From the NCBI GenBank assembly GCA_013388435.1, contig JACAFE010000032.1, positions 6,851 to 70,850 of the forward strand: a stretch of 64,000 nucleotides of DNA, given 5' to 3'. The notes below the pieces were generated by a model, which worked only from the letters and a program-made list of their open reading frames with translations, searched no databases and was not told the DNA's origin. This document shows positions 21,780 through 60,947 of the stretch, in pieces. The stretch comes from Nitrospirota bacterium (GTDB lineage: Bacteria; Nitrospirota; Thermodesulfovibrionia; Thermodesulfovibrionales; SM23-35). Made by a program: the position numbers and the translations under genes. Each line of letters starts with the position of its first letter. The stretch's first letter is position 1.

Positions 21780-22189
21780 CCTAAACTTCCTCCTTTCAAA
21801 ACAACACTTATTGCCAAAACTTAATCGCAGAGAACACAGGGAAAAACTCTGTGCCCTCTGTGTCTCATATTCTTTCCTCTTTTTATTAAACTATTGTCAT
21901 TACCATAAAACAGGGAAGATTATTTTTATCCTTGCAATATTGTTAAATGACAAATTGCTTTATTAACGTGTTGTTTTTAGTATATAATTAAATTAACCTT
22001 TTTATAAAGAAAATAATTTATAAATTAATCTGGTCTTTCTTGTCGGGCTATTGACAAATTATTTAATATTTTAGTATTTTATGAAAAGAACATTCTACTT
22101 TAAATAAATGTATAAACCTTCCTGGATAGGCAAAGTCCTACCGGGTTACAAAACCACCAGAATATAAATCCAATAGGAGTTAATTAATT

Positions 22190-23476
22190 ATGGATAATCC
22201 AAAGAAAAACATTATGACAGAAAACATGCCTATTTCTGCACTCAAGGAAAAAACAATTGACGAATTGACAGAAGTTGCCCGTGAACTAAATGTCGAGGGC
22301 GCAAGCAGCATGCGCAAGCAGGACCTTATATTTGCGATATTACAAGCTCAAACAGAAAAAACAGGATATGTGTTTTCAGAAGGAGTGCTTGAAATTCTGC
22401 CTGATGGGTTTGGTTTCCTGAGGTCTCCTGACTATAGTTATTTACCGGGACCAGATGATATATATGTTTCACCATCACAGATAAGAAGATTTAATCTCAG
22501 GACAGGAGATCTTGTCTCGGGTCAGATAAGGCCGCCGAAAGAAAGCGAGCGTTATTTTGCTTTACTCAAAGTTGAAGCAATAAACCATGAATCTCCTGAT
22601 GAAAACATAAAGAGACCCTTGTTTGACAATCTGATTCCTTATTATCCCACCGAAAAAATAAAGCTTGATTATGATCCGAATGATTACTGCACAAGAGTTA
22701 TGGATTTAATTACTCCAATAGGCATGGGACAAAGAGGCATGATAGTTGCTGCTCCAAGAACAGGTAAAACAATGCTTCTGCAATCTATAGCAAAAGCGAT
22801 AAAGAAAAATCACCGCGATATTCATTTGATAATACTCCTGATCGATGAAAGACCCGAGGAAGTTACTGACTGGAAGAGGCAGGTGCCTACTGCTGAAATT
22901 ATCAGTTCTACATTTGATGAGCCACCCCAGCGTCATTGCCAGGTCTCTGAAATGGTTGTTGAAAGAGCAAAACGCCTTGTAGAATGCAAAAGGAATGTGG
23001 TGATACTTCTTGACAGTATAACAAGACTGGCGAGAGCATATAACTCAGTTATTCCAGCAAGCGGAAAAGTACTGTCAGGAGGTCTTGATTCCAATGCATT
23101 GCAGAGACCCAAGAGGTTTTTTGGTACAGCAAGAAATATCGAAGATGGAGGCAGCCTTACAATTCTTGCTACAGCGCTTGTTGATACTGGAAGCAGAATG
23201 GATGACGTTATCTTTGAAGAATTCAAAGGCACGGGCAATATGGAATTGCATCTTGACAGAAAGCTCGTTGACAAGAGAATATTCCCGAGCATTGATATTA
23301 ATGCATCTGGAACACGTAAAGAAGAACTGCTTGTTGATAAAGATGTTCTTAATAAGATGTGGATTCTCAGAAAAGTTCTAACGCCTCTAAGCACTGTTGA
23401 AAGCATGGAGTTTTTACTTGGGAAGCTTATGGGAACGAAAAATAATAAAGAATTCCTCGAAAAAATGAATAAATAA
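22190..23476 (+). CDS. rho: Transcription termination factor Rho
   Basis: 428 aa. Rho N-terminal domain and RNA-binding domain (GFGFLR), Walker A APPRTGKT-like [11 protein letters not shown], and the C-terminal RKEELL motif. Confidence 0.95.
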
Positions 23477-23515
23477 ATTTTTGAGCAATGTCTGCATTAA
23501 TTGTGTCAATCTAAA

Positions 23516-36299: not shown

Positions 36300-37721
36300 T
36301 TAATTATTTTCATTGTAATGTTTGATAATCTGCTCTGCAAGATAAACAGCTTCTTCATGTTTTTTTATTTCTCCCCTATCCTGAGCCTCCCTGATTTTAC
36401 GAATAATCCTACCGATTTCAGGCCCCTGCTCTATTCCTAATTTTATAATATCATCCCCGGTTATAAGATTAGGTGCACTTATTTTTGCTTTAATCCAGTC
36501 GAAATAATCAAAAATAATCTTCTTTAAAGAAAGAATTAGACCATCCCTGATTTCTGAAGCAGAATTTTTACCCTGCGAACTCATAACATCGGCTATTGAG
36601 AGAATAAGAACAGCGATTGAATTATCATTCATCTTTCGGAACCATTTTAGTTTTGACAATTTTTTCACACGCCTGACAGCTAAATTAAGGGCATTAATAT
36701 GTTCTGCTATCATTTTAAAAATAAACTCCGTATCAGCTCTTGAAAGTTTGAGACGCCTGGCAATATTTAAAAATATTTTTGCTCCTTCTTTATCATGTCC
36801 ATAAAAAGTTATTTTATCTTTATTTGAATCGAATGCTTTTGTTGAAGGCTTACCAATATCATGTAATAAAGCAGAAAGTTTTAATAATTGTCTTTTTTTA
36901 GTATCTATTATCTTTGATACCATATCTCCATATGCACCAAAGAATACTGATAGATTATTCAAAATGCCTTCTGTATTTTCCATCGTAAACAATGAATGTT
37001 CCCAGACATCAAGATGATGAAATCCATCTTGCCCGCGCTTTTTCATTGGTACTATTTCAGGAAATATAATGTCCAGAATTCCTAACTTGTCCATTTCCCT
37101 GAAAGCAGAGTTGCTTCTGGTAGTAGCTAAAATAAGATAGATCTCGGACATTATTCTTTCCGGCGAAACGTTTGGAAGTAAATGTATGGAACTGGTTAAA
37201 TGTTTTAGAGTTGAATTTTCTATTTTGAGTTCAAAAACAGAAGAAAAACGAAATGCCCTTAGAATTCGCAGGGGATCATCAGAAAAACATTTGCTATAGG
37301 TCATACGAATTATTTTTTCTTTTAAATCTTTCTCGGATTGAAAGGGATCAATTATTTTCCCCGATGATACTTCGATTGCTCCTGAATTTATAGTGAAATC
37401 TCTTTTTGAAAGGTCTTCCTCAATTGTTTTCCCACGCATTTCTGATATATCAATAAAACTTGAAATGTCATTTCTGTCAACTACTCTGTAGCAGGGTTCA
37501 TCAGGCTTTTTCTCGAGCGGCACAAAAGCAGCGTTTTTTTTCTTTGAAATTTCAAGAGCTATTTCTTTAGCATTTCTGCAGGTAATATCAATATCTTTTG
37601 GTTTTTCCCCTGATAGAATATCCCTGACAGTGCCACCGACAAGATAGAACTCTGTCTTCCCAATCATATCCCTGTCAAGCCATTTTCCAACTATATGCTC
37701 TATTTTTATCATATTTTCCAT
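36300..37721 (-). CDS. cca: CCA-adding tRNA nucleotidyltransferase / poly(A) polymerase family with HD domain
   Basis: 473 aa. GGTVRDILSGEKPKDIDI, RDFTINS, and the HD motif LLHDIGKP. Confidence 0.8.
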   Translation of the reverse strand: MENMIKIEHIVGKWLDRDMIGKTEFYLVGGTVRDILSGEKPKDIDITCRNAKEIALEISKKKNAAFVPLEKKPDEPCYRVVDRNDISSFIDISEMRGKTIEEDLSKRDFTINSGAIEVSSGKIIDPFQSEKDLKEKIIRMTYSKCFSDDPLRILRAFRFSSVFELKIENSTLKHLTSSIHLLPNVSPERIMSEIYLILATTRSNSAFREMDKLGILDIIFPEIVPMKKRGQDGFHHLDVWEHSLFTMENTEGILNNLSVFFGAYGDMVSKIIDTKKRQLLKLSALLHDIGKPSTKAFDSNKDKITFYGHDKEGAKIFLNIARRLKLSRADTEFIFKMIAEHINALNLAVRRVKKLSKLKWFRKMNDNSIAVLILSIADVMSSQGKNSASEIRDGLILSLKKIIFDYFDWIKAKISAPNLITGDDIIKLGIEQGPEIGRIIRKIREAQDRGEIKKHEEAVYLAEQIIKHYNENN

Positions 37722-37825
37722 ATTATATTGTAATGGTGTATTATATTATGTGAATTTATAAAAATATATTTAAACCAGAATAATGCAGACATTGCTCAAA
37801 AATTCATTTTATGAAAATAAAATAT

Positions 37826-37993
37826 ATAGCAATAACTCAATTTGTGAAACAAAATAACTACCTTAGTATAGGGAAATGGCTTTATTTTGTATTGTAATGT
37901 ATTTACATCTTTTTTCACTGAGGCTTACGCTTCGTCTCCAGCCTCAGTATTAAAAGACACGTGATTTTGTTTCATAAATCGAGTTATTGCTAT
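37826..37993. repeat. 168-bp element bounded by 30-bp imperfect inverted repeats (MITE-like or structured RNA)
   Basis: The left arm atagcaataactcaatttgtgaaacaaaat (37826-37855) matches the reverse complement of the right arm attttgtttcataaatcgagttattgctat (37964-37993) at 28 of 30 positions. An internal GC-rich hairpin pairs ctgaggct (37918-37925) with agcctcag (37940-37947). Confidence 0.7.
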
Positions 37994-38043
37994 TTAATTA
38001 TGTTATTAAATGTTTACATTATTTCAATTTTATTTTTATGTAA

Positions 38044-40098
<2,055 letters not shown>

Positions 40099-40511: not shown

Positions 40512-42155
40512 ATGAAAAATTATTCATATTTATACAATTCGATCAAAAAAGTATTTTTACTCCTTTTTATCGCTTCATTTTTTGCTGCAGGATGTGCAAC
40601 TGTACCTGAGAGAAATGTTGCACTCGAAAATGCACGCACAGTATATGAAAAGGCTCAGGCAAACCCTGAAGTCTCAAAAAATGCTCCTGTAGCTTTGCAC
40701 GAAGCCGCACAGGCTTTAAGCAGAGCAGAAAGAGCAAAAGATAATGAGGAGAAAACACATCTTGCTTATATAGCCGAAAAAATGGCTCAGATAGCTGTTT
40801 CTCTTGCCGAACAAAAAACCTCAGAAAAAGAAGCTGAAGAATTAAGTCAGGAAAAAAATAAGATAGTTCTTCAAGCTCGAGAGATTGAACTTAAAAAAGC
40901 GCTTAATTTAGCTGAAACAAGATTGATGGATGCAGAACGTGCAAGAAAGCAGGCTGAAACAAAAGCCCTTGAACTTGAAAAATCAAAAGGAGAAGCTGAA
41001 CTTCTTGCAAGACAGGCCGAAGCTGCTAAAAAAGAGATAGAAGCAAGAATTATTGAACTTGAAAGAGCAAAAAAGGAAGCTGAAATTCTTGCGCAACAAA
41101 GGGAAGAAGCAAGAAAAGCTGCTGAAAATTCCGCGGTTCAAGCTGAACTTGCGAGAAAAGAAGCCGAGGCAAAAGCACTCGAACTTGAAAAAGCTAAACA
41201 ACTGGCTGAAACAAGAGCTATTGAGATTCAAAGAGCCAAAGAACAGGTTGAGTCTCTCGCAAGGATAAACGAAATAGCAAGAAAAGAAGCCGAGGCAAAA
41301 GCTCTCGAAATAGAACGTACAAAAGGTCAGGTGGACTCTCTTTTAAAACAAAATGAAGCCGCTAAAAAAGAACTTGAAGCAAGAGAAATAGAAATTGAGA
41401 GAGCTAAAAAATTAGCTGAAGCATTATCCCAGCAGAATGAAGCTGCAAGAAAAGAAGCTGAAGCAAGAGCACTCGAGATAGAGAGAGCTAAAAAATTAGC
41501 TGAAACATTGGCTCAGCAAAATGAGGCTGCTAAAAAAGAACTTGAGGCAAGAGAAATTGAGCTTAAAAAAATAAGGGGTGAAGCAGAAGCAAAAACTATT
41601 GAAGCTGAAAAGGCAAAAAAAGAAGCCGAGAAAAAAGCTCTTGAGCTTGCGAAAGCGAGAGAAGAGACAGAAATCAGAAAACTTGAAGCTGAAATGGCGC
41701 GCAGCAAGATTGAAGAAACAATGGCTCAAAGGAAGCTTCTCGAAAAAGAATTGAGCGAACTAAAAGCTAAACAGACCGATAGAGGAGTTGTTCTTACACT
41801 TGGTGATATTCTTTTTGAGACAGGAAAATCCAATCTAATGCCAGGCGCCAGAAGAACAATAAACACAATCGCGGATTTTTTAAAAAAATATCCAAAACGT
41901 AACATTGTTATTGAAGGGTTCACAGATAATGTCGGAAGCGACAAATTCAATATTAAGCTTTCCCAGCGCAGAGCAAGCGCTGTAAGAACAGCTTTAATGA
42001 ATAAAGGCATATCATCTGACAGAATTGCGGTTAAAGGATATGGCAAGAAATATCCTGTTGCTACAAACAAAACAGCAGAGGGAAGGCAACAAAACAGAAG
42101 AGTTGAAATAGTAATACTTGATGAAGGAGTTCTACCAGAAAAAATGCTGCGTTAA
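40512..42155 (+). CDS. OmpA-family lipoprotein with DUF4398-like N-terminus and about 300-aa repetitive coiled coil
   Basis: Start set at MKNYSY (ATG 40512) with lipobox FFAAGCAT. The C-terminal OmpA domain reads GVVLTLGDILFETGKSNL..IEGFTDNVGSDKFNIKLSQRRA..NRRVEIVI. Confidence 0.85.
   Translation: MKNYSYLYNSIKKVFLLLFIASFFAAGCATVPERNVALENARTVYEKAQANPEVSKNAPVALHEAAQALSRAERAKDNEEKTHLAYIAEKMAQIAVSLAEQKTSEKEAEELSQEKNKIVLQAREIELKKALNLAETRLMDAERARKQAETKALELEKSKGEAELLARQAEAAKKEIEARIIELERAKKEAEILAQQREEARKAAENSAVQAELARKEAEAKALELEKAKQLAETRAIEIQRAKEQVESLARINEIARKEAEAKALEIERTKGQVDSLLKQNEAAKKELEAREIEIERAKKLAEALSQQNEAARKEAEARALEIERAKKLAETLAQQNEAAKKELEAREIELKKIRGEAEAKTIEAEKAKKEAEKKALELAKAREETEIRKLEAEMARSKIEETMAQRKLLEKELSELKAKQTDRGVVLTLGDILFETGKSNLMPGARRTINTIADFLKKYPKRNIVIEGFTDNVGSDKFNIKLSQRRASAVRTALMNKGISSDRIAVKGYGKKYPVATNKTAEGRQQNRRVEIVILDEGVLPEKMLR
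41376..41570 (+). repeat. In-frame 84-bp (28-aa) tandem repeat inside the OmpA-family gene
   Basis: The units at 41376-41459 and 41460-41543 encode EAREIEIERAKKLAEALSQQNEAARKEA and EARALEIERAKKLAETLAQQNEAAKKEL, followed by a partial third unit. More diverged copies span about 40900-41700. Confidence 0.8.
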
Positions 42156-45613: not shown

Positions 45614-45840
45614 AACGCAATAGTATAACTCTATTTTATTTTCAAATCCAGAAAAAAATTAATTCGAAAAGTGAAATTGAAATAATACAGATTTTGCGAA
45701 AAAATTTATTTTAAAGATATCAAACAGTTAGTATCTGTATTCAATAAAGAGCATTTATGGGTTATTGGTAGAAATTATTTACTGAAATTATTGAGACTAA
45801 ATATGTATATGATATTTTCTTCTTAGAAATTAGGTTTAAG

Positions 45841-59962: not shown

Positions 59963-60095
59963 TTTTTCCGATTTTTCTCCAAATTAGTTGCTAATTTTTA
60001 ATTTCGCAACATCTGAATTATTTCAATTGCATCATTTGGGTTAAATACTATTATTATGTTGACTTTATATTTTATTGATTGATAGACTTTAAATT

Positions 60096-60947
60096 ATGAT
60101 AGATACGCTTGAATTCTATGAAGAATTAAAAGAAGCTCTTGAACCAGCTGCTGCAAAGAAAATAGCCGAACTTCTCGGAAAACTTTACAGAGATTTGAAA
60201 AATACTGTAACAAAAGCTGAATTTGAGAGACTTACGGATGTTGTATCAGAACTGGTTCAAAGCCAGAAACAACTGGTAGAAGCTCAGAAAAGATCTGAAC
60301 AGAGACTTGACTCTCTTGCTTTGAAGATGGAAGAGCTTGCGGAAGCGCAAAAGAAGACAGAGCAAAGGTTGGATTCTCTTACATTAAGGGTTGAAGAGCT
60401 TGCAGAAGCGCAAAAGAAGACAGAGCAAAGGTTGGATTCTCTTACATTAAGGGTTGAAGAACTTGCGGAAGCGCAAAAGAAGACAGAAGAGGAGTTAAAG
60501 ATTCTTATACAAGAACATAAAAAAACACGTGAAATGGTTGCTGGATTATCTGACACTGTTGGTTATGGTCTTGAAGATAAGATAATGCCTTATATTATTG
60601 AATTTGCTAGGAAAGAATACAAAATAGAGGTATCTTTAATAGATAGAAAGAATATGCTTTATCCTGATGGCAGATATGATGAAATAAATATATATGTAGA
60701 AGGCAGAAAAAACGGTGAAAAAGTATACATGGTTGGAGAATGCAAAGCAAGACCCAGCAAAAAAGATATTGAGAGGTTTTCAAACCTTCTTAAACGTTTA
60801 AGTAATTATATTGGTGGTTCAATATATCCTTTTGTTGTAGGGTATTATTATTCACCAGATGTTGAAAAATATTTAAAAGAAAAGCATCCTGATATTAAAG
60901 CTTTGAAGAGTTTTGAGTTTGAAATGAAATACTCAAAACAAAATTAA
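60096..60947 (+). CDS. Coiled-coil repeat protein with C-terminal PD-(D/E)XK-like domain
   Basis: 283 aa. The N-terminal 140 aa are heptad-rich with 21-aa repeats (EELAEAQKKTEQRLDSLTLRV). The C-terminal part reads GYGLEDK..YDEINIYVEG..VYMVGECKARPSKKDIERF, which fits a D...E-x-K nuclease-fold pattern. Confidence 0.65.
   Translation: MIDTLEFYEELKEALEPAAAKKIAELLGKLYRDLKNTVTKAEFERLTDVVSELVQSQKQLVEAQKRSEQRLDSLALKMEELAEAQKKTEQRLDSLTLRVEELAEAQKKTEQRLDSLTLRVEELAEAQKKTEEELKILIQEHKKTREMVAGLSDTVGYGLEDKIMPYIIEFARKEYKIEVSLIDRKNMLYPDGRYDEINIYVEGRKNGEKVYMVGECKARPSKKDIERFSNLLKRLSNYIGGSIYPFVVGYYYSPDVEKYLKEKHPDIKALKSFEFEMKYSKQN
60330..60487 (+). repeat. 63-bp in-frame tandem repeat, about 2.5 copies
   Basis: The units at 60330-60392 and 60393-60455 differ at 1 of 63 nt. 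The partial third unit at 60456-60487 has 1 mismatch. An older diverged copy lies at about 60267-60329. Confidence 0.9.

Follow-up and report, generated by a model that had tools for sequence, protein, structure and literature searches.

What is the 168-bp sequence with palindromic ends that separates the genes cca and ligA in an uncultured Nitrospirota bacterium, and how did it get there? The preliminary description of this locus offered two readings, a miniature inverted-repeat element (MITE) or a long-stem structured RNA. Our analysis of the 64,000-nucleotide stretch of DNA that contains the locus (hereafter the window) and of metagenome contigs indicates, with a probability of roughly three in four, that the sequence, which we call E, belongs to a dispersed, MITE-like family of non-coding repeats with palindromic ends in the intergenic DNA of uncultured Nitrospirota, and is probably an old copy that no longer moves. 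The family is previously undescribed and is an ordinary kind of bacterial "junk/regulatory" repeat.

E covers positions 37826-37993 on the plus strand, in the orientation of the family consensus, as delimited by blastn and nhmmer against 89 copies of the family. Its left neighbour is cca (36300-37721, minus strand; CCA-adding/poly(A)-polymerase family with an HD domain; Pfam PF01743, PF12627, PF01966) and its right neighbour is ligA, the gene of the NAD-dependent DNA ligase (38063-40098, plus strand; Pfam PF01653, PF03120, PF03119, PF12826, PF00533). We took the ATG at 38063 as the ligA start on the basis of alignments with relatives, and the spacer between the two genes therefore spans 37722-38062, that is 341 bp. 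The left arm of E (37826-37855, ATAGCAATAACTCAATTTGTGAAACAAAAT) and its right arm (37964-37993) form terminal inverted repeats that pair at 28 of 30 positions with two mismatches, and both the coordinates and the sequences given for them in the preliminary description proved correct. None of 100 dinucleotide shuffles of the window contained two matches to the arm at ≤3 mismatches. A repeat finder widened the inverted repeat to 39 nt at 87% (37820-37858 and 37961-37999) and placed it at the top of all inverted repeats in the entire 64-kb window. The left arm is followed (37856-37917, plus strand) by a conserved post-arm stretch of 6 nt, AACTAC, and then by a variable AT-rich core. The GC-rich hairpin (37918-37947, plus strand) is conserved, and its 8-bp stem CTGAGGCT/AGCCTCAG lies where it had been described, with the halves at 37918-37925 and 37940-37947 enclosing a 14-nt loop; the window copy carries two changes in this loop, GTCTCC versus GACTTC in the family. 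A moderately conserved linker (37948-37963, plus strand; family consensus TAGTGAAGACCCGTG) joins the hairpin to the right arm. The element is flanked by ATA on the left and TTT on the right.

The predicted folding of this region is strong on both strands, with energies of -59.9 kcal/mol (plus) and -58.9 kcal/mol (minus) against about -28 for shuffled sequences (z = -8.5 and -9.0), and it is strong in all subfamilies as well. The hairpin had been judged not to be a simple terminator, and this agrees with our finding of 0 terminator-like sites on either strand between 37600 and 38200, the nearest T-run being 17 nt past the stem. No conserved promoter or terminator was found inside E. The claim that E holds no open reading frame needs a small amendment: a 40-codon ORF with a GTG start (37796-37918, minus strand) overlaps its left half but, falling in the non-conserved core, is not a credible gene. 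Sigma-70-like promoter hits in the AT-rich spacer were many and weak, none was conserved across the family, and we discarded them as evidence.

The number of copies was obtained by scanning JGI metagenome contigs with the 22-nt arm pattern GCAATAACTCNATTTNTGAAAC, which matched at least 119 stretches of DNA, with plus and minus matches typically 140 nt apart, as in the window. When these loci (0.99 Mb) were searched with the 168 bp by blastn, 90 near-full-length matches were obtained, of which 89 are distinct and 164-170 bp long. The window copy is 80-86% identical to the 89 family copies (loci L005-L123) and is recovered by nhmmer with E = 3.6e-41. The preliminary description had made its readings depend on copy number and conservation, and both are evident: E is clearly not a single-copy sequence lacking conservation, as it has 89 distinct copies with a conserved hairpin. 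The family is dense in places. In sample Ga0315298, 8 large contigs with a total of 1.29 Mb contain 101 arms and at least 50 elements, which gives a lower bound of one element per ~25 kb; on some contigs the density reaches one per 18 kb. This high copy count refers to the contigs of a related organism, and the window's own DNA covered here, 64 kb, holds a single copy with no degraded extras according to the nhmmer family profile. In ~40 kb of DNA from three relatives, the closest ones outside the species, the same profile found no copy.

The hosts of the numerous copies can be placed by synteny. Six E-bearing loci (L088, L112, L008, L067, L074, L060) show synteny with other regions of the window, their nucleotide identity being 70-76%, therefore the high-copy hosts are relatives of the window organism and belong to different species. 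The window itself is assigned to uncultured Nitrospirota by homologues of its CCA protein, the named ones of which, at 45-48% identity, come from MAGs of Nitrospirae, Nitrospiraceae and Thermodesulfovibrionales. The GTDB representative genomes contained no E in scans with either the window-type start TAGCAAT or the consensus-type start TGGCAAT; the TGGCAAT pattern matched once, in a GC-rich MAG of the Pirellulaceae, where the surrounding DNA held no element, and this match was attributed to chance. The plasmid and phage collections gave no blastn match to E. Two hits among IMG/VR viral contigs consist of 25-nt arm identity (GCAATAACTCAATTTCTGAAACAAA) inside a 707-aa ORF, with the rest of E absent, and are probably chance similarity in AT-rich coding DNA; the coordinates of such stretches are 1072-1096 in L131, 4648-4672 in L132 and 4647-4674 in L085. 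Literature searches for the arm sequence and for Thermodesulfovibrio together with MITE found nothing, nor did we find in the literature a MITE or an ERIC-type element for this Nitrospirota lineage.

Which parts of E are conserved was determined from an alignment of 32 representative copies and, for the comparison of subfamily consensuses, from the full set. The arm consensus TGGCAATAACTCAATTT[C/A]TGAAACAAAAT is near-invariant and the ends of the family are conserved as TG...CA (TGGCAAT...ATTGCCA); the window copy has TA...TA at 37827 and 37992, with A replacing the consensus G as the third base. The consensuses of the two main subfamilies differ at 1 of 56 arm positions, at none of 9 positions of the post-arm segment, at none of 30 positions of the GC hairpin including its 14-nt loop, at 3 of 15 linker positions and at 20 of 51 positions (39%) of the ~50-nt core. 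Among the 71 copies of the main subfamily, minor alleles have a mean frequency of 0.09% in the hairpin versus 4.8% in the core. The conservation of the arms is partly an ascertainment effect of the search pattern, and that of the hairpin is free of this effect. The core can also be replaced altogether: in six variants of ~330 bp a second inverted-repeat element of ~210 bp (F2) stands in place of the core, and in one variant of 113 bp a GGCTGAAGGCT module is found instead of the core and the hairpin. Every subfamily retains the long closing stem and the hairpin in its fold, and the core structures differ. E therefore has a conserved shell, which consists of two ~30-bp arms (TG...CA), the 9-nt post-arm segment and the 30-nt GC hairpin near the right arm. 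That the shell is conserved and the core replaceable points to the arms and the hairpin as the cis-acting part for spread. This part would be recognised by a trans-acting enzyme, and the variable core would be cargo.

Comparison of orthologous sites bears on how E came into the spacer. In two relatives, L001 (GCA_020725385.1, CCA 79% identical) and L002 (GCA_900174565.1, CCA 77% identical), gene order is kept and the flanking genes share 84-88% nucleotide identity with the window; their cca-ligA spacers measure 56 bp and 60 bp, respectively, and E is absent from both, which implies that the site is empty in these organisms. L003 (CCA 71% identical) has an unrelated spacer of 204 bp. Same-species contigs from five samples (CCA at least 90% identical) share the identical spacer of 340 bp, and E is present in all of them. 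Upstream of rho the distribution is inverted, with E present in L112 and L008 and absent in the window, and none of the element-bearing metagenome loci is an orthologue of cca-ligA. The filled and empty states at cca-ligA and rho therefore imply that E was gained or lost independently at each site, the exact insertion junctions lying beyond resolution at this divergence. The only spacer polymorphism among the five same-species samples is an A to G change at position 14 of the left arm (window 37839) in L128, which turns an A/C mismatch of the stem into a G-C pair and restores pairing with the right arm; either gene conversion between the arms or selection for pairing could account for it. Two independent same-species short-read contigs stop just past E or within it, position 1 of L129 corresponding to window position ~38021 and position 1 of L130 to ~37865, as one would expect of a multi-copy repeat that breaks assemblies. 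These contig ends are a hint of further E copies elsewhere in the window species.

The empty spacers also show what the site looked like in relatives. An ancestral promoter-proximal block beside the cca start codon (37722-37752, ATTATATTGTAATGGTGTATTATATTAT) is shared with L001, L002, L003 and L004 and contains promoter-like hexamers on both strands. The extra DNA of the window, ~240-280 bp that comprise an F2 motif, E and a right-hand extension, sits between this cca-proximal block and ligA. The F2 terminal-repeat motif (AATAATGCAGACATTGCTCAAAAATTCATTTT; 37779-37812, plus strand) ends 13 bp left of E and has a weak inverted partner at 38009-38023. The extension module (TTAATTATGTTATTAAATGTTTAC; 37994-38017, plus strand, 24 bp) goes with the subfamily nearest to the window copy: the homology of L040, L007, L050, L070, L114 and L122 to the window reaches 38015-38017, past the inverted repeat. 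Both the F2 motif and the extension are common to this closest subfamily, and the order F2, linker, E occurs in L050 as well. In the window species E and the neighbouring repeat modules probably arrived as one block of ~240-280 bp and then became fixed. As to the promoters, TACAAT/TATAAT-like hexamers at 37719-37754 abut the cca start, with a -10 element ending 5 nt before the ATG and no Shine-Dalgarno sequence, and ligA likewise has none; the cca and ligA mRNAs may be leaderless or have a very short leader in the relatives with a spacer of 56-60 bp.

The position of E in the cca-ligA spacer follows the preference of the whole family. None of the 89 copies overlaps an ORF of at least 120 aa. 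In the same loci, 23 of 56 E-bearing intergenic regions separate divergent gene pairs versus 48 of 509 other regions (odds ratio 6.7, p = 8.5e-9), and the window copy is also found in a divergent pair. Between co-directional genes, E shares their orientation in 14 of 19 distinct contexts (p = 0.064). The element frequently flanks other short repeats and forms mosaic clusters with them, the recurrent companions being arrays of the GCGTTTATA-type 9-mer, a triple-hairpin TTCCAG module, a CCCCCTTTGTTAAGGGGG hairpin, GGCTGAAGGCT repeats and F2. Only E and the F2 motif of these modules are present in the window. The interior of E is found in either orientation relative to one flank type, and particular flank variants go with particular orientations, which implies some amplification of larger composite units.

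Several observations on the companion repeats were made along the way. In the related high-copy organism the clusters combine tandem 9-mers (GCGTTTATA/GCGTTCATT), terminator-like GGCTGAAGGCTTCAGCC repeats, F2 and E in variable order, and the module joined by TTCCAG is a triple GC-hairpin. Such clusters were seen in L016 (4930-5000 and 5650-5900), in the flanks of L040, L007 and L122, and in L048, L079 and L062. A second intergenic motif, AATAATGCAGAYATTGCNNAAAAATTTATTT, occurs in the window at 23476-23501 (minus), 37779-37804 (plus), 45681-45706 (plus) and 60006-60022 (minus), and its 17-nt core has 6 window matches at ≤3 mismatches versus 0.97 expected; in the related metagenome organism this motif constitutes the terminal inverted repeats of the ~210-bp F2, which is also nested in E. 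We rejected the idea that the F2 motif and the TGGCAA ends are sigma-54 sites, as the GG/GC spacing, judged by eye, does not fit.

To what extent does E deserve the name MITE? In bacterial MITEs terminal inverted repeats enclose a core and target duplications flank the element; MITEs encode no transposase, form a stable long stem-loop and are usually shorter than 200 bp (PMC3184786; PMC11602168). Most of this picture holds for E. Terminal inverted repeats longer than the 10-15 bp expected at minimum enclose a short core (28/30 in the window, arms of ~30 bp in the family); the length of 164-170 bp falls within ~50-800 bp, and E has no transposase gene, its sole ORF being the 40-codon one in the non-conserved core; dispersed copies are numerous in the contigs of one sample, with 1 copy in the 64-kb window; and the filled and empty sites at cca-ligA and rho speak for past mobility. 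The MITE reading of the preliminary description was therefore essentially correct, E belonging to a multi-copy, non-coding, intergenic family with terminal inverted repeats, and the two features that were looked for and not found are the target-site duplication and the partner transposase. Duplications of 2-9 bp, tested with six boundary offsets (0-5) and six lengths, were not consistently more frequent than in shuffled pairings among the 73 copies that have distinct flanks, and isolated excesses (e.g., 13 versus 4.4 at offset 4, k = 4) trace to recurrent flank repeat modules. These recurrent flanks are repeats themselves, so part of the amplification may concern larger mosaic units and not E alone. 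A search of ~1 Mb of E-bearing DNA for inverted arm pairs more than 331 bp apart, including 700-3000 bp, found none; the E-bearing loci yielded no multi-copy ORF family, only housekeeping genes lie between neighbouring E copies, and no IS or transposase with E ends was found in ~1 Mb of E-bearing loci or in the window. Since E fits the published description of MITEs except for the target duplication and no partner IS was found in these loci, we call it MITE-like and not a MITE.

Three other explanations have to be weighed against a MITE-like repeat. That E is a unique local palindrome, be it an operator or cruciform of cca-ligA, an unusual terminator or a chance inverted repeat, would agree with the single copy in the window and with its location in a divergent promoter region. 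This explanation is already refuted by the family census, which found at least 89 homologous copies in unrelated loci, and E is moreover absent from the same spacer in close relatives, bears no terminator signature and has a chance expectation of zero; its probability is close to nil. The structured-RNA reading of the preliminary description has more to offer. E could represent structured RNA genes or cis-regulatory leader RNAs, in which the stem and the hairpin are functional, for example as a 5' module recognised by RNase III or by a protein, and spread is secondary. The hairpin, with its 14-nt loop, is invariant across subfamilies and far more conserved than the freely varying core, and the enrichment of copies in promoter-containing divergent regions, the co-orientation with genes in 14 of 19 contexts (p = 0.064) and the pairing restored by the population SNP in L128 point the same way. 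So do the one-sided transitions in the arms, where wobble pairing is kept on the minus strand in 13 events and on the plus strand in 4; the hairpin shows the opposite trend (minus 1 versus plus 3), and the strand signal is thus weak and inconsistent. On the searches proposed for it, the reading found no positive support. No Rfam family matches E, even at E≤10: in the whole window nothing but tRNAs exceeds the gathering threshold, and the best hit in the spacer at E≤10 is a yeast snoRNA at 18.9 bits versus a threshold of 75, which is noise. RNAalifold on the 32 copies did recover the stem and the hairpin, and the covariation asked of them was essentially nil, with a covariation term of -0.01 and a compensatory double change in 1 of 34 pairs, the paired regions being almost invariant and thus giving little power. 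The most common subfamily, moreover, has a fixed C/A mismatch in the stem (51 copies), the interior of E accepts either orientation relative to one flank type, and E holds no conserved promoter or terminator. Hence we regard an RNA as the primary identity of E as unlikely.

The conserved shell and the missing target duplication raise the question whether E moved in another way than MITEs do. It could have been mobilised as folded single-stranded DNA by a single-copy enzyme of the HUH/tyrosine type (REPIN/RAYT-like, IS200/IS605-derived or "PATE"-like) or by a site-specific recombinase. Such mobilisation leaves no target-site duplication and depends on the recognition of hairpins and not of double-stranded inverted repeats, which would suit the asymmetric, subterminal position of the conserved GC hairpin and the long, near-perfect hairpin potential of E. 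A single-copy domesticated enzyme would also fit our failure to find a multi-copy transposase, and the mosaic clusters with other short palindromic modules are reminiscent of REP/BIME. The ends of E tell against it: the TG...CA termini are symmetrical inverted repeats, which are typical of DDE transposon ends, the arms lack the internal palindrome of a REP unit, and there is no conserved target motif of 4-5 nt on the 5' side of E. Nor did inspection of the ORFs near the copies reveal a Y1/HUH gene beside any of them. This route is in our judgement quite improbable. One may go further and propose that E is a self-contained shell and not a decayed IS, and that a single-copy enzyme reads it as folded single-stranded DNA or RNA and copies it, with interchangeable cargo and with no target duplication, into promoter regions. 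We consider this bolder proposal unlikely too; if true, it would amount to a new mobilisation system of Nitrospirota, which the host may have domesticated for assembling mosaic regulatory regions upstream of genes. The MITE-like repeat thus stays the preferred reading.

Whatever brought E into the spacer, its effect on cca and ligA is a matter of speculation. If ligA is transcribed from the ancestral upstream region, E would lie in a 5' leader of ~300 nt and could form a double-stranded RNA stem of ~30 bp there. E is a candidate for a long structured leader of ligA, a target of RNase III or a cause of displaced promoter elements. By its place between the cca promoter block and ligA, the insertion offers a natural experiment on the rewiring of divergent promoters.

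The window contains some further features that were noted beside E. A low-GC (27%) insertion of ~2.4 kb relative to L001 (28073-30472), between a TPR gene and mfd, encodes a 475-aa N6/N4 DNA methyltransferase as well as a Cys-rich ORF of 101 aa that has no match in Pfam, and the same-species contigs L125 and L129 have a different methyltransferase (HTH_17 and N6_N4_Mtase) at this site; the insertion is a restriction-modification islet of variable content. A leader block CCTGGATAGGCAAAGTCCTACCGGGTTA with a TTGACA promoter region (22110-22160) lies upstream of rho (22190-23476) and is conserved in L112 and L008 despite an overall identity of ~75%. This block folds into a small hairpin, is matched by no Rfam family and may be an autoregulatory leader of rho. 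Two in-frame tandem repeats, one of an 84-bp unit repeated 2.5 times in a gene for an OmpA/DUF4398 protein (41349-41557) and one of a 63-bp unit repeated 2.5 times with 96% identity (60330-60487), are ordinary coding repeats that are unrelated to E.

The family adds an undescribed, abundant small repeat and a mosaic of companion repeats to what is a poorly studied, uncultured Nitrospirota lineage. It also has a practical side: E repeats break short-read assemblies, as the two contigs that end in or beside E illustrate, and the lack of E in the GTDB representative genomes implies that surveys based on MAGs under-count the family. Additionally, since its hairpin is invariant and its core replaceable, and neither a target duplication nor a transposase is visible, E is a reasonable place to seek unconventional mobilisation.

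How does E compare with the small repeats known from other bacteria? The MITEs derived from IS elements, such as RUP, Nezha and MITEAba12 (PMC3184786; PMC11602168), share with it the inverted repeats, the non-coding core, a length below 200 bp, the multiple copies and the filled and empty sites. They are, however, flanked by target-site duplications and accompanied by an IS whose inverted repeats match theirs, and neither was found for E. The REP/BIME and REPIN-RAYT systems are likewise intergenic, very abundant and hairpin-forming, occur in mosaic clusters and have no target-site duplication. Contrastingly, REP units are GC-rich palindromes of ~20-40 bp and a REPIN is a doublet of them, whereas E is a single unit of 168 bp with AT-rich 30-bp arms that lack an internal palindrome, and neither a repeat-flanked ORF nor a RAYT gene was found in the E-bearing loci. 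ERIC (also IRU) is classed as a MITE (PMC3184786). Like E, it is an imperfect palindrome of ~130-170 bp, strictly intergenic and non-coding, with many copies and a stable long stem-loop. Variants of ERIC with an internal insertion at a fixed site exist, and no transposase is known for it. E differs from ERIC in that it shows no sequence similarity by Rfam or BLAST, belongs to a different phylum, carries a conserved GC hairpin between longer arms of 30 bp that pair almost perfectly, and prefers upstream and divergent regions. The Correia elements (CREE/NEMIS), the intergenic mosaic elements of Neisseria, are 100-160 bp long with terminal inverted repeats of ~26-30 bp and a high copy number, and are like E intergenic, adjacent to promoters and arranged in mosaics with other small repeats. 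No cognate transposase is known for them either, and their long double-stranded RNA stem is a substrate of RNase III if co-transcribed. The first six nucleotides of the window copy, TATAGC, presumably resemble the terminal inverted repeat of Correia elements, and the family consensus TTGGCA does not. Correia elements duplicate a TA target, whereas E has neither this duplication nor a Neisseria-type terminal repeat or sequence homology to them; promoter, IHF-site and RNase III effects belong to Correia elements and would be conjectural for E. It is nevertheless ERIC and the Correia elements that the E family most resembles, both being intergenic and promoter-proximal, with internal-insertion variants and an occurrence in mosaics.
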